DNA of 64,000 nt from a bacterium (lineage in GTDB: Bacteria; Hinthialibacterota; Hinthialibacteria; H5-UNCL2). The stretch covers positions 1,103,677-1,167,676 of the forward strand of contig JABTUV010000001.1 in NCBI GenBank assembly GCA_015075175.1, written 5' to 3'. The notes under the pieces were generated by a model. It did not search any database. It was not told the origin of the DNA and saw nothing but the letters and a program-made list of their open reading frames with translations. The position numbers and the translations under genes were made by a program. Positions 100 through 58,770 of the stretch are shown piece after piece; position 1 is the first letter of the stretch, and every line of letters starts with the position of its first letter.

Positions 100-340
100 C
101 CCCCTCACCCGGCGCTGCGCGCCGACCTCTCCCTCAGGGAGGTGGAATCCTCTCCCTGAGGAGAGAGGTCCCTCTCCCTGAGGGAGGGTTAGTGAGGAGG
201 GTGCGACATCGAGGTTCCCCTCACCCGGCGCTACGCGCCGACCTCTCCCGGGAGGTGAAGAACGCGCTACGCGCCGACCTCTCCCTCCAGGGAGAGGTGA
301 AGAACGCGCTGCGCGCCGACCTCTCCCGTGGGGAGAGGTA
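100..340. repeat. Cluster of GC-rich palindromic REP-like repeats (family B: CGCGCCGACCTCTCCC-N3-7-GGGAGAGG, plus CCCCTCACCC units)
   Basis: At least 5 tandem imperfect copies seen directly. Each copy contains the inverted repeat CCTCTCCC/GGGAGAGG. The same family recurs at 28040-28200. Confidence 0.7.
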
Positions 341-4065: not shown

Positions 4066-4518
4066 GTGAACCTCGAGCTCTTCGCAGCCCTGCTCATGCG
4101 CTGGGCGCACATCCTGGCGGCCATCGTGGCGCTGGGCGGTTCGATCTTCTTCCGATTTGTGTTCCTGCCGGCGGCGGGCGCATGTCTAACCGGCGACCAG
4201 TCGGCGCGATTGCGGCAGACCTTCATGGTCCGCTGGAAGCGCATCGTGCACACCTGCATCGCCCTTTTTCTCATCAGCGGCCTTTACAATTATCTCGTCA
4301 TCCAGAGGCCCCAACACGAGGGGCAGGCGCTGTATCACGCCCTTTTCGGCGTCAAGTTCCTCCTGGCCCTGGCGGTGTTCTACCTGGCCCTGGCGCTCAC
4401 GGCCTCCGGCGCGTTCGGCTCGAGCTTGCGGCGCCGCGCGGCCTACTGGCTGGCGATGTTGGTCGCGTTGGCCGTGATCGTGGTCCTGATCTCGGGTTAC
4501 ATGCGCACCGCGTTCTGA
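4066..4518 (+). CDS. Hypothetical integral membrane protein (4 TM)
   Basis: Hydrophobic segments in ORF 3874..4518; the start is uncertain (GTG 4066 or ATG 4021). Confidence 0.45.
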   Translation: MNLELFAALLMRWAHILAAIVALGGSIFFRFVFLPAAGACLTGDQSARLRQTFMVRWKRIVHTCIALFLISGLYNYLVIQRPQHEGQALYHALFGVKFLLALAVFYLALALTASGAFGSSLRRRAAYWLAMLVALAVIVVLISGYMRTAF

Positions 4519-7617: not shown

Positions 7618-7633
7618 TGGCACGAGGCTTGCT
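7618..7633 (+). promoter_or_regulatory. Sigma-54 (RpoN) -24/-12 promoter
   Basis: TGGCAC-gaggc-TTGCT is an exact GG-N10-GC match. It lies about 75 bp upstream of the 7710 start and reads toward the secretion cluster. Confidence 0.6.
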
Positions 7634-8356: not shown

Positions 8357-10096
8357 GACATGAGGGACGTGGACGGTATCATGCATGATCTTCTGGACAA
8401 AATGGTGGCGGCGCGGCAGCTCTCCTCCGCCGACGCGGTCGCACTGCAACGACAGTGCGCCGCTGGAGAGCTCCCCGCCCCCCAGTCCGAAGAGGATGTC
8501 CTGCGCTGGCTGGCGCGGGAATACGATCTGCCTTATACCGATCTGGACAACGTCGAGCCGGACCGGGCCCTCTTGTCGCTGTTCCCCGCGCGGGTCCTCT
8601 TGAAGGAGGAGATTCTCCCGCTGCAGAGGGTTAACGGCAGCGTCGAGGTCGCCGTCTCCCGCCTGTTTGCTACCGAAGGGTTGGACACGCTCAAGGCCCT
8701 CACGGGCCTCTCGCTCTCGCCCGTGCTGGCTCCCTCCGGCGCCATCGCCCGTGAGATGAAAAAGCGGCTCGGCGTCGGCGCGGATACGCTGGACACGCTG
8801 GAGGAGGAAACCCCCCTGCAAGTCGTCGACGAGGCGGCCTCCGACGACGCCAACCTGGACGAGGCCGCCGAGGACGCCTCCATCATCCGCTTCGTCAACC
8901 AGGTGCTGGCCGACGCCATCGCCCTGCGCGCCACCGACATCCACCTGGAGCCGTTTGAAGAGGAGTTTCGCATCCGCTACCGGATCGATGGGATGCTCCA
9001 AGAGGTGCCCGTGCCGGTGCAGATCAAGCGCTTCCAGCCCGCCATCGTGTCGCGCGTGAAGATTCTCTCGCATCTGGACATCGCCGAGAAGCGCTTGCCG
9101 CAGGACGGCCGCATCAAGGTGCGGGTCGAGGGCGCCGAGGTGGATGTGCGCGTCTCCGTCATCCCCATGCTCCACGGCGAGGCCGTGGTCATGCGTCTCC
9201 TGCGCCAGGGCACGACGCTTTTGGGACTCTCCGAACTGCGCATGGCCGAGCGCGAGGCCCGCATCTTCCGCCGCATTCTCTCCTTGCCGCACGGCATCGT
9301 GCTCGTCACCGGCCCCACCGGCAGCGGCAAGACCACCACCCTTTATTCGGCGCTCTCCGAGATCAACGACGCGGTCCGCAAGATCATCACCATCGAGGAC
9401 CCGATCGAGTACCACATGCACGGCGTCAACCAGATTCAAGTGTCGGAGAAGGCGGGGCTTACGTTCGCCCGCGGTCTGCGCTCGATCCTCCGGCACGACC
9501 CGGACGTGGTGCTGGTGGGGGAAATCCGCGACTCGGAGACGGCGCAAATCGCCGTGCAGGCGTCGCTGACGGGACACCTGGTGTTTTCGACGCTGCACAC
9601 CAACGACGCGCCGGGGGCGCTGACGCGCCTCGTGGACATGGGAGTCGAGCCGTACCTGGTCGCCTCCTCGCTGGAGGCGGTGCTGGCGCAGCGGCTGGTG
9701 CGGGTGCTTTGCCCGCGCTGCAAGGTCGAGGAGACTTCGCAAAAGGCGCTGGCCTTCCGCGCCGAACTGGGCCTGCCCGAGGACCGGCCCATCTATCGCG
9801 CCGTGGGCTGCCCCGCCTGCCGGCATACCGGCTTTCACGGACGCCGCGCGGTCTTTGAATTGATGGACATGAACGACGAAATCCGCTCCATGGTTCTGCA
9901 TTCATGCTCCTCGGGCGAGATTCGCGCCGTGGCGCGCAAGACCGGCATGAAGTCGCTGTGCGAGGACGGCTGGCGGATCGTGGCGGAAGGCGAGACCACC
10001 CTGGAGGAGGTGCTGCGGGTGACCCGCAGCGACCGCTCCGACGGGGCCTCGCGCCTGGCGGAGGACGCGCAGATTTCCACCACGGAGAGCGCGTAA
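8357..10096 (+). CDS. gspE: Type II secretion / type IV pilus assembly ATPase (GspE/PilB)
   Basis: N-terminal GspE_N-like domain, Walker A GPTGSGKTT, and a CPxC...CPAC tetracysteine motif; about 580 aa. Confidence 0.9.
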   Translation, partial: DMRDVDGIMHDLLDKMVAARQLSSADAVALQRQCAAGELPAPQSEEDVLRWLAREYDLPYTDLDNVEPDRALLSLFPARVLLKEEILPLQRVNGSVEVAVSRLFATEGLDTLKALTGLSLSPVLAPSGAIAREMKKRLGVGADTLDTLEEETPLQVVDEAASDDANLDEAAEDASIIRFVNQVLADAIALRATDIHLEPFEEEFRIRYRIDGMLQEVPVPVQIKRFQPAIVSRVKILSHLDIAEKRLPQDGRIKVRVEGAEVDVRVSVIPMLHGEAVVMRLLRQGTTLLGLSELRMAEREARIFRRILSLPHGIVLVTGPTGSGKTTTLYSALSEINDAVRKIITIEDPIEYHMHGVNQIQVSEKAGLTFARGLRSILRHDPDVVLVGEIRDSETAQIAVQASLTGHLVFSTLHTNDAPGALTRLVDMGVEPYLVASSLEAVLAQRLVRVLCPRCKVEETSQKALAFRAELGLPEDRPIYRAVGCPACRHTGFHGRRAVFELMDMNDEIRSMVLHSCSSGEIRAVARKTGMKSLCEDGWRIVAEGETTLEEVLRVTRSDRSDGASRLAEDAQISTTESA

Positions 10097-17505: not shown

Positions 17506-19026
17506 TGAATATCAAAAAGTCGATGCTCAGAGTGGCACTTCTGGTCGCCCTGGCAGCCATGCTTCCGGTCGTCGGCGCGGCGACCGAAGCGCCACCGCGC
17601 CGCCCGCCGCCTGGTTTCGCAAAACGCCCCCCCCAGTTCCGCCGAGGGCCTGCGCCTCAATTTCCGCGGCGCGCCCCTCGATACCGTGCTCGACTACCTG
17701 TCCGAGGCGGCGGGCTTCGTGATCGTGCGCGAGGCCCAGGTGGACGGGACCGTCGATGTCTGGAGCCACCAGCCGCTTTCCCGCGAGGAGGCGGTGGAAT
17801 TGCTCAACACCGTCCTCTACCAGAAGGGGTACGCCATCCTGCAGCGCGGGCGCATCCTGACCATCGTCTCCCGCAATGCCGCCACCCGCAGCGACATTCC
17901 GGTCAAGACCGGCCGCAAGCCCGAAGAGATTCCCCGCACCGACCAGCTGGTGACCATGGTCATTCCCGTCTCCTACGCCGACGCCGACAAGCTGGTGGAG
18001 AACCTGCGGCCGCTTCTGCCGCCTGAGACCACGCTCTCCTCCAACCACGGCAGCAACTCGCTGATTATCACCGGCCCCCAGACCGACATCCGGCGCATGG
18101 TGGAGATCGTGGACGCGCTGGACACCTCGCTGGCGGCGGTCTCGACCGTGCGCGTTTTTCCGCTGCGCTACGCCGACGCCAAGCAATTGGCCAGCGTGGT
18201 CACGGAAATCTTCAAGCAGGAGGATCAGAGCTCGCGCGACGGCAATCGCATGGAGCGGTTCATCCGCGGGATGCGCGGCGGGCCGTGGGGCGGAGGCGAC
18301 ATCTCCCTGGACGAGGGCGGCCCGGCCGCCCTCCGCGGCAATGTCCGCGTCATCGCCGTCGCCGACGAGCGCACCAATTCCCTCGTGGTCAGCGCCCCCG
18401 AGGAAGTCATGCCCACCATCGCCGGACTCGTCGCCGAGGTGGACACCGTCAGCGAGGATCTGACCCAGATTCGCGTCTTTCCGCTGCAATACGCCAGTGC
18501 GGAGGAGATGGCGCAGGTCATTACCGACATCTTCCAGCAGCGGACCCAGACCGGCCAGACTACCCAGACCCAGCAGGGGCCGCGCTTTTTCGGCTTCGGC
18601 GGGCGTGGTCCTTTCGGCGGCGCCCAGAATAATCAGAACGCCGCCAACACCTCCGCCACCGGCCGTCGCACCGTGCAGGAAAACACCGTGCTGGCGGTCG
18701 CCGATCTGCGCACCAATTCGGTCGTGGTGCGCGCCGCCAGCGAGCTGATGCCGCAGGTCGAGCAGATGATCCGCGGCCTGGACGAGAACCCCGCCAAGGC
18801 CAAGAAGGTCCACGTCTACCGCCTGGAGAACGCCGATCCCGAGCAGGTCGCGCAAATCCTGGAGGGCATGTTGTCGGGTGAGTCCGGCACCTCCAGCTCG
18901 TCCACCGGCAATCGCAACCTGCGTTCGCAGAATACTTCCAACACCCGCGGCAACACGGGGACTTCCGCCAATCGCAACACCGGCACGCGCAATACCGGTA
19001 CGCGCAACACGGGATTCAACTTCTAA
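17505..19026 (+). CDS. gspD: Secretin N-terminal periplasmic domains (N0, N1, N2, N3-like), frameshifted in a C8 homopolymer
   Basis: The signal peptide MNIKKSMLRVALLVALAAMLPVVGAA is in frame 0. The N0 domain (LNFRGAPLDTVLDYLSEAAGFVIV...) is in frame +1, and the junction is the C8 run at 17627-17634. The C-terminus is a low-complexity NTGTRNTGTRNTGFNF tail. No secretin pore domain is present in this ORF. Confidence 0.7.
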
Positions 19027-19049: not shown

Positions 19050-20195
19050 ATGCCCATGACATGGAATGGACGACAGGCGCAACCTACCTCGCGCGACAAA
19101 CGGGCAGGCTGGATCGCCGGGCTGCTGTGCGCCGGACTCTTCTGGGCGACCACCGCTTCCGCCCAGTTTTTCCAGCAGCAGTTCGGCGGGGTGCAGTCCC
19201 GCGCCCGCGCCTCGACTTCCGGCGCCGTCAACAAGGCCGGCCTCTCCGAGGATACCGTTATTCAGATCGATCCCGACACCGGCGCCCTCATCATCGTCAC
19301 CGACGAGGAGACCCACGGGCAGTTGTCCGAGGTGATCCGCGAGCTGGACCGTCCCGTCCCGCAGGTGCTCATCAACGTGCTCTTCCTGGAGGTCACGCAC
19401 ACGAAAGACCTCGACCTAGGCGTGGAGGGGAGTTTCGGCTTCGACGGCAGCAGCCCCGCCGACCGCGACACCCTCCGCAGCGCGTTCGGCGTGGCCGCGG
19501 AGACGCGCGGCGGCTTCTATTATCTGCTCGAGCGCAACCTCAACGTGACCTTGCGCGCCCTCTCCGGCGTGGGCAAACTGGAGGTGCTCTCGCGGCCCTC
19601 CATCCTCACCCGCAGCAATCGCGAGGCCGTCATCACCGTCGGTCAGGTGCTGCCCGTCATCCGCAACAGCCGCATCACCCAGGACGGCCAGACCCTCAAC
19701 ACCATCGAGGAGAAGGACGTCGGCATCATCCTGCGCGTCACCCCCTTCATCACTTCCGACGGCCTGGTCGAGATGGACCTCTCGCCGGAGATTTCCACCC
19801 TCACCGGCGACACCGTTCCCATTACCGAGACCATCAACTATCCGGTCATCGCCAAGCGTTCGGCGGAGACGCGCGTGGTCGTGCCCAATGGGCGCACGGT
19901 CGTCATCGGCGGGCTTATGGAGGACAGCAAGACGCAGGAGGTCTCGAAAGTTCCCGTCCTCGGAGACATTCCGCTTTTGGGGTTGGCCTTTCAGCGCCGC
20001 AAGGACGCCAAGTCCAAGACCGAGCTCCTGATCTTTCTGACGCCGCACGTGCTGATGCGCTCCAGCGAGCTGGACGCCATGTCGGAAGCCGAGACCAACC
20101 GCGCCGAGCTGGCCCCCAAGGTCTTCGACCGGCAGCAGATGCAGAAATACCTGGATATTCCCGCGGAGGAGCCGCAGGAGATTGAACAACCCTAG
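19050..20195 (+). CDS. gspD: Secretin C-terminal (pore-forming) domain protein with its own signal peptide
   Basis: Signal-like MPMTWNGRQ...GLLCAGLFWATTASAQ, an N3-like domain, then the secretin domain VLINVLFLEV...PVLGDIPLLGLAF...ELLIFLTPHVL. Its ATG is preceded by an AGGAAAGGGAAAAAG ribosome-binding site. Confidence 0.8.
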   Translation: MPMTWNGRQAQPTSRDKRAGWIAGLLCAGLFWATTASAQFFQQQFGGVQSRARASTSGAVNKAGLSEDTVIQIDPDTGALIIVTDEETHGQLSEVIRELDRPVPQVLINVLFLEVTHTKDLDLGVEGSFGFDGSSPADRDTLRSAFGVAAETRGGFYYLLERNLNVTLRALSGVGKLEVLSRPSILTRSNREAVITVGQVLPVIRNSRITQDGQTLNTIEEKDVGIILRVTPFITSDGLVEMDLSPEISTLTGDTVPITETINYPVIAKRSAETRVVVPNGRTVVIGGLMEDSKTQEVSKVPVLGDIPLLGLAFQRRKDAKSKTELLIFLTPHVLMRSSELDAMSEAETNRAELAPKVFDRQQMQKYLDIPAEEPQEIEQP

Positions 20196-20199
20196 GACG

Positions 20200-20460
20200 G
20201 CGCCGGCGCCTCAGCGCCGCCCGCGCGATTGCCCCGCAATCGCGCTCGTAATCGCAAGCGATTGCGATTTGTCATCGTGCTGTTACGGATGGAGCTGTCA
20301 TTTCGACCGAAGGGAGAAATCCATCTTGCTGTTACCGCGGGGCGGGCGCGATGCAGAAGATCTCTCGCTTCGGTCGAAATGACAGCTACGATTACAGGCA
20401 GGATTAAGGTTACGATTACGAGTGAAACGGCGCCGCAGCCGAGTGCCAAGCAAGGAGAGA
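20200..20460. repeat. Composite element, copy 1: hexanucleotide arrays (CGTAAT-like / ATTACG-like) flanking a 20-bp perfect inverted repeat with a 58-bp core
   Basis: Left arm AGCTGTCATTTCGACCGAAG and right arm CTTCGGTCGAAATGACAGCT. Flanks are cgcaatcgcgctcgtaatcgcaagcgattgcgattt on the left and ctacgattacaggcaggattaaggttacgattacgag on the right. Confidence 0.7.
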
Positions 20461-20470
20461 CGCAAACGTC

Positions 20471-22065
20471 ATGGGCGGAAAGCGCAGCCATCTGGTCTAC
20501 TGGCTGCTCCTCATCGTGTGGGTGCTGATCGACGTCTGGCAGGTGATCGAGCACGATCGGGTCAGGGAGTCGGCCAAGGCGGCCCTGCGGGGACGGGCGC
20601 GCGACATCTCCAACACCGTGGGGATGGTGATCCGCTCGCGCCGCCAGGTCGTGGACCGGGAACGCATCGAGGAAGCCCTGCGTGAGTTGATGGAGTCGGA
20701 CGTGCTGATCTCGGTCGCCCTGCTCAATCGCGCCGGCGAAGTGCTGGCCTCGGCGGGGGAGCCGGTTGACGACGTGCTCAGGCATCTGCCGGAGGGCGGG
20801 GAACGCTGGGAGCGCGACCGCTACGTCAACTTCAACCCGGTAGACCTGGGCGCGGCGGTCGACCCGCAGGACGCGACCGAGGCCACACCCATCCTGTTCG
20901 ACGACAACGAACCGCCGGATGAAATGCGGCGGCCGCGTGCGCCCTGGCCGCCGGGCGTCACCATCGAGCAGACCTCGTCGGAGTTGATCATCCGGCGGCA
21001 ACTGCCGCCGGGCTGGCCGGCACCGGCTACCGGCGTCTGGGACGGCACGGGCGAACGACCGGGCGGTTGGCGGCCCCCTCCGCCTGACGTGGCGTTTTCC
21101 ACTGCCGAGCGCCGCCCGCCGCGGGCCGGCTTCGGCGGCCCTCCGCGCTGGGGCCGCCCCCGCTGGATTTCCGAACAGCAGTGGGCTTCCATGCTCAACC
21201 AGCGAGGTCACTGCGCAGCTTCGTCCTCGTCATGTCCAATCGCCAACGAGGCGAGGAATGCGCCCGTGACTTCGGCTGCGCTGCGCCGTCTCCGCCATCG
21301 CCCTGGTCGCCGTGGCGAGCCTGGCGCGCCTGGCGCAGCGTCGTCCGCTCCGGCGAGCTCGAATTGCGTCTCGTCCGCGCCAGCGAGACCAACGCCCGCC
21401 TGCGCGAAATGAACTTGGCCGCCGCCGGCCTCGCCCACGAAACCCGCAATCCCCTCAACATCGTGCGCGGCCTTGCCCAACTCATCGCCCAGGACTCCGC
21501 CGCCCCCGACGAAGTGCGCGCCCGCTCGCGTCAGATTGCCGAGGAAGTGGACCGCGTCACTGGACGCCTGGTCGAGTTCATCGATTATTCCCGCCCCCGC
21601 GAACCCAAGCCCGCTCCCGTCCAGCTGGCAACCGTCGTGCGCGACGTCATGCGCACCCTGGACGGCGACCGCGAGGAAAAAGCCGTCGAGTTCTCGCTTT
21701 CCGGTCCTGACCTGGTCGTGGAAGCCGACGAATCCCTCTTGCGACAGGTCCTCTTCAATCTTATGCTCAACGCGGTCGAGGCCGTGGACCACGGGGGCCG
21801 GATCGAAGTCAAGGTCGAGAAAGCCGGCCCGGACGAGGCCGCCTTCGAGGTGCGCGACAACGGTCCGGGCGTGCCGGAAGGCCTGCGCGAGGCCATCTTC
21901 CGTCCCTACTTTACCACCCACAAGGAGGGGACCGGCCTGGGCTTGGCGGTGGTGCGGCAGATCGTTTTGGCGCATCGCTGGGAGATCGCCTGCCTGGCCG
22001 GCGACGGCTCCGGCGCCCGCTTCCGCGTCACCGGTATGAAGCTGGCTTCCCGATCCGCCGCCTGA
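20471..22065 (+). CDS. Sensor histidine kinase (PilS/NtrB-like partner of the downstream sigma-54 regulator) with at least 2 frameshifts around TM2
   Basis: TM1 WLLLIVWVLIDVW and a periplasmic domain in one frame; TM2 AVSAIALVAVASLARLA in a second frame; coiled coil, HisKA (LAHETRNPLN) and HATPase (DNGPGVPEG...GTGLGL) in a third. Confidence 0.7.
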
Positions 22066-22069
22066 CCTC

Positions 22070-22420
22070 GTTTGCGGAACGCAATCGTAATCGTAATCGT
22101 AGTCGATTACGGCTCGTCACCATGCTCGTGCTCGCAAGTCGTAATCGTACTCGTACGGATAGATCTGTCATTTCGACCGAAAGATGCTGTCATTTCGACC
22201 GAGAGATGCTGTCATTTCGACCGATGGATGCTGTCATTTCGACCGAGAGATGCTGTCATTTCGACCGAAGGATGCTGTCATTTCGACCGAAGGATGCTGT
22301 CATTTCGACCGAAGGGAGAAATCTTTCTCGCTGTTACCGCCGGGCGGGTGCGATGCAGAAGGTTTCTGCCTTCGGTCGAAATGACGGCTGCGACGACGAG
22401 TACGAACAAGATTAGGATTA
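22070..22420. repeat. Composite element, copy 2: CGTAAT hexamer array, then 7 tandem 22-bp copies of the left-arm motif (nnnGATGCTGTCATTTCGACCGA), then core and right arm, then hexamers
   Basis: Direct reading of 22158-22315. The core CTGTTACCGCCGGGCGGGTGCGATGCAGAAG is nearly identical to the core of copy 1. Confidence 0.75.
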
Positions 22421-22422
22421 CC

Positions 22423-23778
22423 ATGCCCAACCACGCGCGAATCCTCGTTGTGGACGACGACGCCAGCCAGCGCAGTCTCCTGGAATGCTTTCTGCGCGGG
22501 CGCGGTTACGAGGTCTTGACGGCGGATACCGGCGAGGCGGCGCTGGCGATCCTCTCGTCAGAGGCCATCGACATGGTGATCTCGGACGTGCGCATGCCGG
22601 GCATTTCCGGACTGGAGACGCTGCGGCGCGCGCGGCAGTCGCATGCGGTCCTGCCCGTGTTGTTGGTGACCGCCTACGCGGACATCCGCGACGCGGTCGG
22701 CGCGATGCGCGACGGGGCGGTCAATTACCTGGAAAAGCCCATCGACCTGGATGAGCTTCTGGCGACGGTGCAGGCGGCCCTTGGGCCGCGCGAGGCGCCG
22801 CCGCCGTGGCTGCCCGCCGGTCTCAGATTGCCCGAGCACGTGGTCGCCCGCAGCCCGCTCACGCGCGAGGTTTTCCGCCAGGCCGCCCTGGTGGCGCCCT
22901 CGGATGCCCGCGTGCTGATTACCGGCGAGAGCGGCGTGGGCAAGGAAGTGGTCGCCGACGTGATCCACCTTTGGAGTCCGCGCGCCCGCGGACCCTTTCT
23001 CAAAGTCAACTGCGCCGCCATCCCCGAGTCGCTCTTGGAGAGCGAATTGTTCGGCCACGAGAAGGGCGCGTTTACCGGCGCGGTGGGACGCCGCGCCGGC
23101 CGCTTCGAGGAGGCCGAGGGCGGTTCCATCCTCCTGGACGAAATCGCCGAGATGTCCCCGGCGCTCCAGGCCAAGCTGCTGCGCGTCACGCAAGACGGCA
23201 GCTTTGAGCGCGTCGGCTCCAACGAGCGGCAAAGGAGCAACGTGCGCATCCTGGCATCCACCAACCGCAACCTGGAGGCGGAGGTCGCCGAAGGGCGTTT
23301 CCGCGAGGACCTCTTTTTTCGGCTCAACGTGGTGGAGATTTACGTCCCGCCCCTGCGCGAGCGGCAGGCGGACATCCTGGAACTGGCGCACTTGTTCGCC
23401 GAGCGCTTCGCCAAGCGCAAGCTGCGCTTTTCGGCGGCCTTCGCCACCTGCTTGGAACTGTACGACTGGCCGGGCAACGTGCGCGAGTTGGCCAACGCGC
23501 TGGAGCGCGCCGTGCTGCTGGCGGGCAGCGAACTCCTCCTGCCCGAGCACCTCCCCCGACGCATCCAGAAGGCCGGCGTCGCCTCAACCGACGCCGATGC
23601 TCCCGCCAAGGGCACGCGCATGGTGGACATGGAGCGCTCCCTGATTCTCTCCACCCTGCGGGAGCACAACTTCAGTCGTACCGAGACCGCGCGCACCCTG
23701 GGCATGAGCCGCCGCGCCCTGCTCTATAAGCTGCGCCGCTATGCCGAGGAGGGTTACGACGTCGGCTCCCGCTCGTGA
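22423..23778 (+). CDS. Sigma-54-dependent response regulator (NtrC/PilR family enhancer-binding protein)
   Basis: REC domain (VVDDD...D-VISDVRMPG), AAA+ sigma-54 interaction domain (GESGVGKE, GAFTGA, ESELFGHEKGAFTGA) and a C-terminal Fis-type HTH. Confidence 0.9.
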   Translation: MPNHARILVVDDDASQRSLLECFLRGRGYEVLTADTGEAALAILSSEAIDMVISDVRMPGISGLETLRRARQSHAVLPVLLVTAYADIRDAVGAMRDGAVNYLEKPIDLDELLATVQAALGPREAPPPWLPAGLRLPEHVVARSPLTREVFRQAALVAPSDARVLITGESGVGKEVVADVIHLWSPRARGPFLKVNCAAIPESLLESELFGHEKGAFTGAVGRRAGRFEEAEGGSILLDEIAEMSPALQAKLLRVTQDGSFERVGSNERQRSNVRILASTNRNLEAEVAEGRFREDLFFRLNVVEIYVPPLRERQADILELAHLFAERFAKRKLRFSAAFATCLELYDWPGNVRELANALERAVLLAGSELLLPEHLPRRIQKAGVASTDADAPAKGTRMVDMERSLILSTLREHNFSRTETARTLGMSRRALLYKLRRYAEEGYDVGSRS

Positions 23779-24842: not shown

Positions 24843-24893
24843 CCATTCCCTTTCGTAATCGTAATCCTAATCGATTACGAGCACGACTCGCTG
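24843..24893. repeat. Solo hexanucleotide array (cgtaatcgtaatcctaatcgattacgagcacgactcgctgcg)
   Basis: Same CGTAAT/ATTACG motif as at 20.2 kb and 22.1 kb. Confidence 0.6.
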
Positions 24894-31378: not shown

Positions 31379-32988
31379 ATGCAGTGGTTCGTTCTTCTGG
31401 GCACGGCGTTTTTCATCCTTCTGGTCGCGTCGCTCAGTTTTGTGGCCTCGCGCTACAAGCGCTGCCCCTCCGACAAGATTCTGGTGATCTACGGCAAGGT
31501 GGGGCGCGGGCAGTCGGCCCGCTGCATCCACGGCGGCGGCGCCTTCATTTGGCCGCTCATCCAGGACTACGCCTTCATGCGCCTCACCCCCATGACCATC
31601 TCCATCCCCCTCCAGAACGCCCTCTCGATGCAGAACATCCGCATCAACGTCCCCAGCACCTTCACCATCGGCATCTCGGTCGATCCGGCGGTGATGAACA
31701 ACGCCGCCGAACGCCTCCTGCACCTGGAGGTGCGCGACATCGAGGAGATGGCCAAGGAGATCATCTTCGGACAACTGCGTCTGACCGTCGCCTCGCTGAC
31801 CATCGAGCAGATCAACCAGGACCGCGAGAGCTTTCTGGAGGCGATCCGCAAGAACGTCGAGCCGGAGCTGAACAAGATCGGGCTTTACCTGATCAACGTG
31901 AACATCACCGACATCACCGACGAATCGGACTACATCGACAGCATCGGCAAGAAGGCGGCGGCGGAGGCCATCAATCAGGCCAAGATCGACGTGGCCCAGC
32001 AGGACAAGCTGGGCGCGATCAGCCACTCAGGGCCTGCGCGCGACGGACCATCAAGGTCGCCGAAAACACCCAGGCCGAGAAGAGGAAGGCGGCCAAAGCG
32101 GACCGGCGCGTCTACGATGCAACAGCAGGGAGACGACGGCCTCGGTGGGCAGGCGGCCGCCAATCCGACGCGAGATCAAGGTTGGCCGAAAACCTGGCTC
32201 AGGCGAGAAGGGCAAGAAGGCGGCCGAAGCGGACAAGCGCGTTTACGTCTCCGCCCAGGAGGCCGACGCGGTAGCCGGCGAGAACACCGCCAAGGCGCGC
32301 ATCGCCGACGTGGACGCCGAGCTGGCCGTCAAGCAGGCCGCCGCGCTGCAGCGCGCAGAAGTCGCCCGCCGCGAGGCCCAGGTCGAGATTCAGAAGGCCC
32401 AGTATCGCGCCGAGCAGGAGCGCCTCACCGCCGAAGAGGTGGTCAAACAGGAAATCTCCAAAAAGAAGATCGAGATCGCCGCCGAAGCCCAGGCCGAACG
32501 CCTCCGCCGCGAGGCCAGGGGCGAGGCCGACGCCATCCTGCTCAGGTACGAGGCCGAAGCCAAGGGCATCCGCCAGGTGTTGGAGTCCAAGCGCAGGGCT
32601 ATTCCAGCCTGGTCAAAAGCTGAGGGGCGATGCCAAGGCCGCCGCTACCCTCCTAATGATCGAGAAGATCGAGGAGATCGTGGCCCGCCAGGTGGAAGCC
32701 ATCAAGAACCTGAAGATCGACAAGATCACCGTCTGGGACAGCGGCGGCGCCAACGGGTCATCGACCTCCAGTTTTATCTCCAGTCTGATCAAGAGCCTGC
32801 CGCCGCTGCAGGAGATCGCGCAGATGGCGGGCGTCGAGCTGCCCGGCTACCTGGGACGCATGGCGGCGCCAAGCCCCCGCCAACCGGGCAGAGTCAGGCT
32901 GACACCGCTCATGATTTGCGCATTGTCATCTGGAATTGCGTGTCCCAAAATGGTTGCGGGAACAAGAAAAACCCGAGTCCGGCAGTAG
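31379..32988 (+). pseudogene. Flotillin-like SPFH domain protein (YqiK/FloA-like) with several frameshifts
   Basis: N-terminal TM plus SPFH domain (31379-32020) in one frame; the charged AEA.R/IKVAEN repeat region and C-terminus (DKITVWDSGG...GVELPGYLG) are spread over at least 3 frames. Confidence 0.7.
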
Positions 32989-32989
32989 C

Positions 32990-33720
32990 GGGAAAAATAA
33001 AAAACCCGAGTCCTCGAGTAGCCGGTACTCCGGCGTATCGAGAGGACGGCCGCGACGCGAGCAGGCCGGTGTTACGCCGCCGTGCCTCTCGATACGGCCC
33101 CGAAGTTACCTGTTGTCTCCATTGGAGGTGCCTCGCCGGGGCCTACTCGAGGACACGGCTCAGCTTTTCGCATTCCGGCTTGGAAAGAGTTGTTGAATAG
33201 AGCAGTTCCGAAAGAAAGAAAAACCCGAGTCCTCGGGTAGCCAGAAAAGAAAACCCGAGTCCGACAGTAGCGGGAAAAATAAAAACCCGAGTCCGGCAGT
33301 AGCGGGAAAAACAAAAAACCCGAGTCCTCGAGTAGCCGGTACTCCGGCGTATCGAGAGGACGGCCGCGACGCGAGCAGGCCGGTGTTACGCCGCCGTGCC
33401 TCTCGATACGGCCCCGAAGTTACCTGTTGTCTCCATTGGAGGTACTCGCCGGGCCTACTCGAGGACACGGCTCAGCTTTCATTCCGGCTTGGAAAGAGTT
33501 GTTGAATAGAGCAGTTCGAAAGAAAGAAAACCCGAGTCCTCGGGTAGCCGGAAAAGAAAACCCGAGTCCGGCAGTAGCGGGAAAATAAAACCAGTCCGGC
33601 AGTAGCGGGAAAAACAAAAAACCCGAGTCCTCGAGTAGCCGGTACTCCGGCGTATCGAGAGGGCGGCCCCGATGCGCCCAGCCCGCCTTCGGAGCGGCCC
33701 CGGTCTTTCATCCTCCAAGG
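32990..33720. repeat. Complex repeat block: a ~345-bp unit duplicated in tandem, each copy holding forward and reverse family A hairpins plus 24-bp AAAACCCGAGTCC-N3-AGTAGCGGG subrepeats
   Basis: Direct reading: 33000-33345 is almost identical to 33345-33690. Confidence 0.7.
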
Positions 33721-33773
33721 GTGCGGCGCAGCCTCGTGAGGGCCTGCCTCTCCTCAGTCGCGGCGGCCGCCGA

Positions 33774-54382: not shown

Positions 54383-54494
54383 GAATGCAAACTGAAGTTT
54401 GTACTCCGATGAACAAACTGAAGTTTGTACTCCGGTGAACAAACTGAAGTTTGTACTCCGATGAACAAACTGAAGTTTGTACTCCGGCGACGGA
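54383..54494. repeat. Four tandem 28-bp repeats, each holding a 6-bp-stem hairpin (tGAACAAACTGAAGTTTGtactccgr)
   Basis: Direct reading; CAAACT-GA-AGTTTG palindrome per unit; AT-richer than the flanks; lies in the 5' region of the cytochrome gene. Confidence 0.8.
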
Positions 54495-58422: not shown

Positions 58423-58425
58423 TGC

Positions 58426-58770
58426 CTCATCTTAATCTTAATCTTACTCTTAATCTTAATCTTGCTCTTGCTCTTGCTCTTACTCTTAATCTTAGTGATA
58501 ATCGGCAGTCCGATGCACCCATAGTGCCATTCGCGCTGACGACTACAATCCTTCACTACCAGTTTGGTGGGCACGCTGTACCGCCGGCATCCATGCCGGC
58601 GACCGCGTATGCTCGGTTAAGAGCGAGATTACTACGATTAGGATCAAGATCAAGATCGAGATCAAGATCAAGATCAAGATCAAGAGCAAGAGCAAGAGCG
58701 AGATTAAGAGCAAGAGCAAGATTAAGATTAAGATTAAGATTAGGATTAAGATTAAGAATTCCTTTTCACT
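58426..58770. repeat. Composite element, copy 3: inverted hexanucleotide arrays (CTTAAT/CTTGCT on the left; GATCAA/GAGCAA/GATTAA on the right) flanking a 120-bp core with a CGCCGGCATccATGCCGGCG hairpin
   Basis: Direct reading. The left array is at 58426-58500 and the right array at 58620-58770, and they are reverse complements in motif content. Confidence 0.75.

Follow-up and report, generated by a model that had tools for sequence, protein, structure and literature searches.

The NTS motif of Neisseria (CGTCATTCCCGCGMAVGCGGGAATCYRG) is an oriented extension of the dRS3 repeat and has been generalised to a class of Ssn-related motifs (SRMs) that occur in several phyla (Chenal et al., Nat Commun 2025; PMC11893778). 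Its nuclease, SsnA, is a 94-aa single-domain GIY-YIG protein that binds the motif hairpin only as single-stranded DNA (ssDNA), not as double-stranded DNA or RNA, and cleaves only the hairpin-bearing strand, a few nucleotides (nt) 5′ of the motif (PMC11893778). From the oligonucleotide lengths reported there, 31 nt separate the cut from the motif's 3′ end, which puts it about 3 nt 5′ of the first base. Cutting depends on the three bases that precede the palindrome, and binding on the C that directly follows it; extensions of the loop are tolerated, and half-sites on separate strands are cut in trans. The SRM–ssn–SRM layout has been likened to an insertion sequence (IS), and also to the REP/BIME palindromes with their RAYT enzyme (PMC11893778). 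A literature search found no follow-up papers on the Ssn family. Here we describe two composite hairpin elements that bracket a sensor histidine kinase gene in a 64,000-nt stretch (hereafter, the window) of a Hinthialibacterota genome (GenBank assembly GCA_015075175.1, contig JABTUV010000001.1, positions 1,103,677–1,167,676). The second element is extended by a tandem array of truncated hairpin units.

We propose, with a probability of roughly three in four, that these elements are non-autonomous mosaic repeats of a cross-phylum ssDNA hairpin motif of the SRM/NTS class, and that their units are Ssn sites. Like the published motifs, the units have an oriented GTCAT head directly 5′ of a short hairpin palindrome that ends in ...AATC; they are intergenic, clustered around genes, present in many phyla and tolerant of loop insertions. 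Some family members share the identical outer stem (GTCATTCC...GGAATC), and in other genomes the units are multi-copy and flank small single-domain GIY-YIG genes on both sides. The units differ in having a 5-bp A/T-rich stem with G·A/A·G mismatches and a CC-GAA-GG apex, whereas NTS has a 7-bp G+C-rich stem; they also come with arrays of 5′ half-units and short-period flanks, and no ssn gene lies within the window. An earlier note on this DNA, made from the sequence alone, had not recognised the architecture as a described class. The anatomy of the arms is that of the SRMs (NTS/dRS3; PMC11893778), and that article mentions neither half-unit arrays nor short-period flanks. The hairpin family has been known since 2025; what is new is a subfamily outside the published search pattern, together with a stereotyped half-unit array of which we found no description in the literature searched.

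Several other mosaic repeats offer partial parallels. In Neisseria meningitidis, NIMEs consist of RS units bounded by dRS3 inverted repeats, often around genes for surface structures. The elements described here share with them the plan of an intergenic mosaic, with a variable, lineage-specific segment between inverted short hairpin repeats, but NIMEs form long RS/dRS3 chains, whereas each site here has a single inverted pair and, in one case, a half-unit array, and the host is a MAG of verrucomicrobial type. REP/BIME elements with RAYT, an IS200/IS605-like Y1 enzyme, are also short imperfect palindromes of ssDNA; they occur in mosaics as inverted pairs and sit on both sides of the gene for their recognising enzyme. 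Their head is GTAG rather than the GTCAT seen here, and their partner is an HUH tyrosine transposase rather than a GIY-YIG nuclease. Miniature inverted-repeat elements (MITEs) such as Correia/NEMIS, RUP and ERIC are likewise palindromic, non-coding, intergenic sequences of about 100–200 bp that can sit within operons; the elements described here differ from them in showing no target-site duplication, and in that their arms are self-folding, oriented, cross-phylum units and not the ends of a specific IS.

Results

Each element contains a 95-nt hairpin, identical between the copies at 84 of 95 positions, and one hairpin lies in each of the spacers on either side of the kinase gene. Copy 1 lies in the gap from a secretin stop codon (20195) to the start of the kinase gene (20471), and copy 2 between the kinase stop (22065) and the start (22423) of a gene whose Pfam domains identify it as a sigma-54-type response regulator. 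The arms of copy 1 (20293–20321 and 20359–20387) are 29 nt long and 93% complementary, and enclose a 37-nt loop; those of copy 2 (22296–22325 and 22359–22388) are 30 nt long and 90% complementary, with a 33-nt loop. A 16-mer from the arm has ten matches in the window, every one at these two sites, against 0.64 expected, and a 31-nt core has two matches against none expected. These results bear out the earlier note, which had described two composite copies with a shared arm and a near-identical core at the two ends of the kinase gene.

The arm is one oriented unit, TGTCAT-TTCGACC-GAA-GGGAGAAA-TC. The left arm of copy 1 (+ strand) is a complete SRM-like unit, with a TGTCAT head, an ATTTC/GAAAT stem, CC/GG inner pairs, a GAA apex and then C. 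Its partner on the minus strand, the right arm of copy 1 (AGCTGTCATTTCGACCGAAGCGAGAGATC), has one mismatch in the outer stem (ATTTC versus GAGAT) and one in an inner pair. In copy 2 the left arm (+ strand) is the seventh unit of the array and the sole complete SRM-like one there, and the minus-strand right arm (GCCGTCATTTCGACCGAAGGCAGAAACC) departs from the unit in its 3′ stem half (GCAGAAAC for GGAGAAAT). The TGTCAT head is present in both plus-strand arms, in all seven array heads and in the minus-strand arm of copy 1; the corresponding head in the minus-strand arm of copy 2 is CGTCAT. Both plus-strand units carry GAAATC, with the C directly 3′ of the palindrome. The loops (20322–20358 and 22326–22358) hold the same organism-private core, CTGTTACCGCGGGGCGGGCGCGATGCAGAAG, at 20329–20359 in copy 1 and at 22331–22361 in copy 2. 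The arms are thus oriented SRM-like hairpin units in the composite arrangement of the family, two of them facing each other around an organism-private loop.

The arm recurs far beyond this organism. A scan of one genome per species (596 Gb) for the exact 18-mer CTGTCATTTCGACCGAAG returned at least 110 loci, in at least 110 genomes from more than ten phyla, against about 17 chance matches expected by our own arithmetic. The hosts include Bacteroidia, Verrucomicrobia, Patescibacteria, Clostridia, Acidobacteria, Planctomycetes, Chloroflexi, Riflebacteria, delta- and gamma-proteobacteria and others. Among the loci listed, the unit reads as CTGTCATTTCGACCGAAG, an optional insert and GGAGAAATC: nearly all matches continue with the latter, often followed by a variable loop and an inverted unit. 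Natural units in these loci carry loop insertions, and other genomes have SRM pairs with private loops scattered over several loci. This recurrence of the arm in more than 100 unrelated genomes, together with the dispersed SRM pairs, supports the assignment to a repeat family. Both the arm and the core had been proposed as search queries in the earlier note; the arm is the part that is widespread, and the core was found only at the two sites in the window. Literature searches with the repeat sequence strings returned only chance primer matches. We also considered a phage vehicle and dropped it, as only one of 2.9 million viral contigs (IMG/VR) has the exact 18-mer arm. That contig (L117) carries the arm twice, in opposite orientations (4231–4248 and 9756–9773).

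The stem bases of the palindrome covary across these loci. The listed genome loci contain 438 units of the form GTCATxyz...z′y′x′AT, compared with about 85 in shuffles or in a reversed-tail control, and the base after the palindrome is C in 344 of the 438, a set in which about 85 units are expected to be chance matches. The stem varies from ATTTC/GAAAT to ATTCC/GGAAT, ATCTC/GAGAT and ATTCT/AGAAT, and the inner C-G pair varies to G-C or A-T. Units of the TCC variant in these loci (TGTCATTCCGAGCGMAGCGAGGAATCT) have GTCATTCC...GGAATC in common with NTS. In a set of 108 distinct units picked without reference to stem complementarity, 97.9% of cells were paired and 58 cells had changed on both sides, compared with 12.3 in shuffles (none of 500 reached the observed value); in slid controls, pairing fell to 17–67%. 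Only three cells in this set were G-T pairs, and this scarcity fits a DNA hairpin better than an RNA hairpin.

The near-absence of such G-U intermediates also bears on the idea that the elements act as RNA, as a REP-like stabiliser, a processing site or an attenuator hairpin in the operon transcript. The spacers do lie between co-directional genes of a likely operon, their RNA folds are strong (−128.9 and −145.4 kcal/mol; z −5.6 and −5.3), and a weak terminator-like hairpin is present at 20246–20267. However, the units occur in both orientations relative to genes, relatives of this locus are without the element (see below), and SsnA, the partner that has been characterised, acts on ssDNA but not RNA (PMC11893778). 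Searches against Rfam found no family in the window at the gathering score, in the region at E ≤ 10 or in 15 unit-rich loci; the only hit was to a tRNA. We regard an RNA role as very unlikely.

The coding partner found beside the units in other genomes is a small GIY-YIG gene. Among 230 fetched loci we identified 19 single-domain GIY-YIG open reading frames (ORFs; PF01541, about 95–135 aa), 9 in 110 genome loci and 10 in 120 metagenome loci, and in 16 of the 19 cases each side of the gene has a unit head no more than 300 nt away, compared with 0.5–1.3% of random 240-nt segments from the same loci. Some of these genes begin right after a unit, whose GGAG serves as the ribosome-binding site, and some end within an inverted unit. 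The GIY-YIG family is very large: 7,995 of 8,000 scored candidates passed E ≤ 1e-5. Repeat-adjoining proteins homologous to the ORF of locus L046 are 79–92% identical between Chloroflexi, cyanobacteria (Thermosynechococcus) and Desulfobacterota (Dissulfurimicrobium), a degree of identity across phyla that points to horizontal spread. Most homologues of this ORF (P0010–P0129) lie on very short contigs, as would fit both horizontal spread and assembly breaks at the flanking repeats.

A classical MITE would offer a different account, in which the whole composite is an IS derivative moved by a DDE-type transposase through outer terminal inverted repeats, and the SRM pair is internal cargo. The 29–30-nt arms, at 90–93% complementarity, are terminal inverted repeats, and homology between the two spacers reaches past the hairpins into the inverted hexamer flanks, over about 190 bp in total. 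In the deltaproteobacterial metagenome-assembled genome JACRCD01, moreover, three loci each have an SRM pair enclosed in a 130-bp element that is bounded by outer inverted repeats, GAGGCTCTTGCAAAAT, and two of these loci show possible 5-bp duplications (CGGAA and TGTTT; L010 3850–4010, L070 1930–2090 and 2650–2760). In the window, by contrast, there is no target-site duplication at the edges of the hairpins or of the 190-bp composite, a check that the earlier note had proposed. There is also no transposase nearby, although no search was made for a transposase with these ends, and the GIY-YIG gene is the sole coding partner seen. Conservation and covariation lie in the inner unit and not in the outer flanks, which differ wholly between genomes, and hexamer modules occur also without SRM pairs. 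We consider this account unlikely, and prefer the assignment to the SRM/NTS class.

Copy 2 is preceded by an array. Tandem Repeats Finder reports a 22-bp repeat at 22165–22315 (6.9 copies, 94% matches, no indels), with GTCAT heads at 22167, 22189, 22211, 22233, 22255, 22277 and 22299. The array consists of six truncated units (22165–22296, + strand) and the complete left arm of copy 2, a refinement of the seven head-to-tail copies noted earlier. Each half-unit comprises a spacer of about 4 nt and then CTGTCATTTCGACCGA(A/G/T)(A/G)G; it retains the head and, as far as the apex, the 5′ half of the hairpin, but not the 3′ half GGAGAAATC. A CRISPR array was rejected as an explanation, given the period of 22 and the lack of spacers. 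The reading frame of the regulator gene stays open through the whole copy 2 spacer with its array, giving a 568-aa ORF (22072–23778) with a TTG start at 22072; gene callers may wrongly add about 117 residues of translated repeat to the regulator.

The same design recurs elsewhere. Several of the genome loci listed contain arrays of three to nine heads ahead of a complete unit, with periods of 18–30 nt. A metagenome scan for three exact heads 4–12 nt apart returned at least 120 loci, and those listed contain 180 arrays of 3–9 heads with periods of 17–32 nt (mode 21). The 3′-most head belongs to a complete unit in 153 of the 180, compared with 1 of 470 inner heads, and an inverted head follows within 200 nt downstream in 106 of the 180. 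Identity between half-units and the complete unit in these arrays spans positions −1 to +11 (TGTCATTTCGACC) and drops sharply at the apex. Half-units leading to a complete unit and then to an inverted partner are thus a stereotyped layout of the family, often accompanied by short-period flanks. The arrangement in the window (six half-units, complete unit and inverted partner at a period of 22) fits this pattern, in the upper range of copy number.

An array of this kind resembles iterons or upstream activating sequences, in that it runs head to tail at about two helical turns and lies directly upstream of a regulator gene. The earlier note had accordingly suggested an iteron or enhancer array, a bank of sites for the adjacent NtrC-like sigma-54 activator or for another regulator of the pilus/type II secretion system. 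Unlike such arrays, this one has no replication origin or sigma-54 promoter nearby. There is no −24/−12 sigma-54 match in 20196–20470 or 22066–22422, and scans of the region for sigma-70 promoters and terminators gave nothing convincing. The perfect sigma-54 promoter consensus in the window (TGGCACGAGGCTTGCT, 7618–7633, + strand) lies about 12.5 kb upstream of the elements, and probably serves the NtrC-like regulator as a target. The orthologous loci examined (L113, L114, L115 and L116) do not have the array, and its sequence is not specific to the system: it is a truncated form of a motif found in many phyla, including ones without the operon, and the same design is seen in 180 unrelated arrays. 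A site bank is in our judgement barely credible. We found no evidence that the elements regulate the two-component system, and any effect on transcription would be a side effect of insertion.

Comparison with related loci indicates how the elements came to lie here. Homologues of the kinase led to three sets of related loci (L113, L114 and L115/L116; one recorded as Verrucomicrobiae), which have in common with the window the gene order PilO-like, Secretin_N protein, secretin, kinase and sigma-54 regulator. The kinase–regulator spacer is 14 bp, 41 bp or a 4-bp overlap in the relatives and 357 bp in the window; the secretin–kinase spacer is 45, 62 or 217 bp in the relatives and 275 bp in the window. 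None of the spacers in these relatives (L113, L114, L115 and L116) contains the hairpin, the hexamers or the array. Because the relatives share the gene order without the element, the elements are insertions, confined to this lineage, into the otherwise very short spacers of a secretin–kinase–sigma-54 regulator row, and not ancestral control sites of the operon. The one 217-bp spacer contains an unrelated repeat. Palindromic repeats of the type CCTCTCCC...GGGAGAGG, with periods of 23 and 42, are found at the start of the window (126–327), and a similar repeat fills the secretin–kinase spacer of relative L115 (1790–1860), where the homologous position is thus taken up by another family of repeats. 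The secretin is encoded in two genes, a Secretin_N/N0 protein (17686–19026) and a secretin-domain protein (19050–20195); a frameshift was rejected as the cause, as the second ORF has its own signal peptide and relatives L113 and L114 also have two genes.

The locus and its hairpins are also present in two independent short-read Logan assemblies made from different runs. One contig starts at the last array unit and is identical from there into the regulator gene; the other (L112) spans 20293–22181, comprising the whole of copy 1 and an intact 531-aa kinase gene, and ends in the first array unit. Contig ends at the first and last units are what one expects of a tandem repeat that exceeds the assembler k-mer size, so those samples too contain a tandem array, whatever its exact copy number. 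The break of L112 exactly at 20293 hints at further copies of the arm in that sample. The kinase gene (20471–22065, + strand) is out of frame at 21208–21326 in the window. Two close frameshifts had been reported there; relative to the intact 531-aa version we count three indels, −2, +1 and +2 (21209–10, 21273 and 21324), and a scrambled 11-nt patch, all within 21208–21326. The truncated ORF is annotated as HS125_04845 on the 1.28-Mb contig. As an independent short-read assembly has the kinase intact, these changes may be consensus errors of the long contig; alternatively, they may mark a strain variant or strain-specific pseudogene.

This evidence also addresses the view that the repeats stem from a local duplication around the kinase gene, or that the sevenfold array is an expansion created during long-read assembly, the outcome that the earlier note had named as one that would undo its description. 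The private core is indeed seen only at the two sites in the window, and the clustered kinase indels relative to the short-read version betray an imperfect consensus. Against this, both short-read assemblies hold the hairpins and break exactly at the first and last array units, as a tandem repeat predicts, and arrays of 3–9 half-units are common in short-read contigs of other organisms. As a whole, duplication or artefact is extremely unlikely, although a purely local duplication is conceivable in this genome, the private core having turned up nowhere else.

Outside the hairpins, degenerate hexamer runs flank both copies in inverted orientation, CGTAAT on the left and ATTACG on the right, as previously noted, although the hexamers are not private to the element. 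The left flank of copy 1 (20223–20292) has CGTAAT-like hexamer palindromes (GCGCGATTGC/GCAATCGCGC and TCGTAATCGC/GCGATTGCGA, then TACGGATGG) and is homologous to the left flank of copy 2 (22078–22164). The latter runs from (AATCGT)x3.8 at 22083–22105 into CGATTACG, followed by a CGTAAT run at 22139–22156 and then TACGGATAGAT. The right flank of copy 1 (20388–20425) consists of ATTACG/GATTAA-like hexamers, inverted relative to the left flank, and that of copy 2 (22389–22422) ends in AAGATTAGGATTACC, abutting the regulator ATG at 22423. The hexamer palindrome module also occurs alone, without an SRM pair, just downstream of the regulator gene (TCGTAATCGTAATCCTAATCGATTACGAGCACG, 24850–24885; 92.6% identical over 27 nt to 22085–22111). 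The hexamer arrays are thus a feature separate from the hairpins. Flanks resembling those in the window accompany SRM pairs in Patescibacteria, Christensenellaceae, Pirellulales and other loci, as A/T-rich arrays of period 6–8 nt that are often inverted between left and right (L028 6270–6560; L040 1840–1920; L075 7400–7615; L111 3830–4030; L011 4205–4228). The density of short-period arrays is 0.33 per kb near units and 0.11 elsewhere, a comparison confounded by the difference between intergenic and coding sequence.

The window holds further repeats. At 58429–58757 an unrelated core of about 135 bp lies between two long inverted hexamer arrays, a left one of (ATCTTA/CTCTTG)x11 and a right one of (GATCAA/GAGCAA/GATTAA)x19. 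On its minus strand this core has a sigma-54-like −24/−12 match (TGGCACTATGGGTGCA, 58529–58514) about 90 nt upstream of a minus-strand ATG at 58423, a placement in which the left hexamer array would become the 5′ untranslated region. At 32953–33746 there are three tandem units of about 305–314 bp; the first two are 98% identical over 177 nt, each opens with A-rich sub-repeats of 30–32 bp (AAAAACCCGAGTCCGGCAGTAGCGGG), and none matches Rfam. A 26-bp unit (CAAACTGAAGTTTGTACTCCGATGAA) is repeated 3.8 times at 54388–54486 with 97% identity and contains a small hairpin, ACAAACTGAAGTTTGT, in each copy.

Discussion

Placing these elements in the SRM/NTS class suggests how they might work. By analogy with SsnA (PMC11893778), the units would be binding and nicking sites of a small single-domain GIY-YIG Ssn nuclease encoded elsewhere in the genome. 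Such an enzyme would read the folded hairpin in ssDNA only and cut the strand that bears it, and no other, a few nucleotides 5′ of the head; an inverted pair would then receive two cuts, at its outer edges and on opposite strands. The likely outcomes are local: breaks in incoming or exposed single strands, altering recombination of the bracketed kinase gene, and rearrangement driven by the repeats. Of the roles that the earlier note had offered, those of a MITE-like, non-autonomous repeat element and of a possible recombination or nuclease substrate agree with this proposal, and that of a bank of regulator sites does not.

Several observations count against the proposal. The published pattern, HGTCWYN(0-2)YYVSBRHN(0-5)WNVSBRGN(0-2)RNCYNB, matches none of the four arms, although the Neisseria consensus matches it in the same script; the pattern expects a G+C-rich 7-nt stem half. 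Neither an Ssn-like gene nor a remnant of one was found in the 64-kb window, where tblastn with five Ssn-like proteins hit only a trivial translation of the arm. The GIY-YIG neighbours in other genomes gave only generic, sub-threshold matches to NCBIfam and PDB. Their membership of the Ssn family in CDD (cd10448) is therefore putative, what is shown being a Pfam GIY-YIG domain, their size, their single-domain nature and their bracketing by the motif, and their Y-11-Y-47-E spacing, which agrees with the mutated SsnA residues Y6, Y17 and E64, is generic to GIY-YIG proteins. Spread within this genome is presumptive, with two sites in 64 kb: the 31-nt core has no match in JGI metagenome contigs, a local BLAST search of the 230 fetched loci with the core and its flanks recovered only the window and its Logan twins, and a search with a chimeric peptide of the hairpin for spurious ORFs over further copies had no match. 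Both minus-strand units have stem mismatches, and the elements may be decaying. Under nearest-neighbour DNA parameters a single unit folds at only −2.6 kcal/mol, no better than shuffles, and on a single strand the unit hairpins would lose out to the arm-to-arm one (−35 kcal/mol; z −7.5). The folding model omits the C-GAA-G apex and the tandem G·A/A·G step, which we take to be features of stable DNA mini-hairpins, and this omission may be one reason for the weak single-unit score.

The half-unit array invites a more speculative model. If a nuclease nicked ssDNA a few bases 5′ of the head and synthesis then proceeded to the hairpin apex, re-ligation would duplicate the stretch from nick to apex and could build an array of half-units. 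This duplication step is our own conjecture and is also to be counted among the weaknesses of the overall picture. That half-unit arrays, and perhaps also the short-period arrays 5′ of units, are footprints of nick-and-copy repeat growth or mobility is conceivable but, on present evidence, doubtful. Pairing across a long loop between any 5′ half and the one 3′ half would, in addition, make each half-unit a potential extra cut site. If the model held, nick-and-copy would be a mode distinct from DDE, HUH and serine/tyrosine transposition, and the half-sites would be natural split substrates completed by the one 3′ half.

The assignment has practical and biological consequences. Arrays of this kind should not be taken as banks of regulator sites during annotation, and they break short-read assemblies and keep reading frames open (here, from 22072). 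Natural arrays of split half-sites also provide a ready design for work on Ssn-based tools. The layout yields testable predictions, both for the positions of nuclease cuts and for the growth of the repeats. More broadly, a puzzling composite is placed in a family described only in 2025, and within that family it belongs to a subfamily that is conserved to an exact 18-mer across many phyla and yet was missed by the published pattern.

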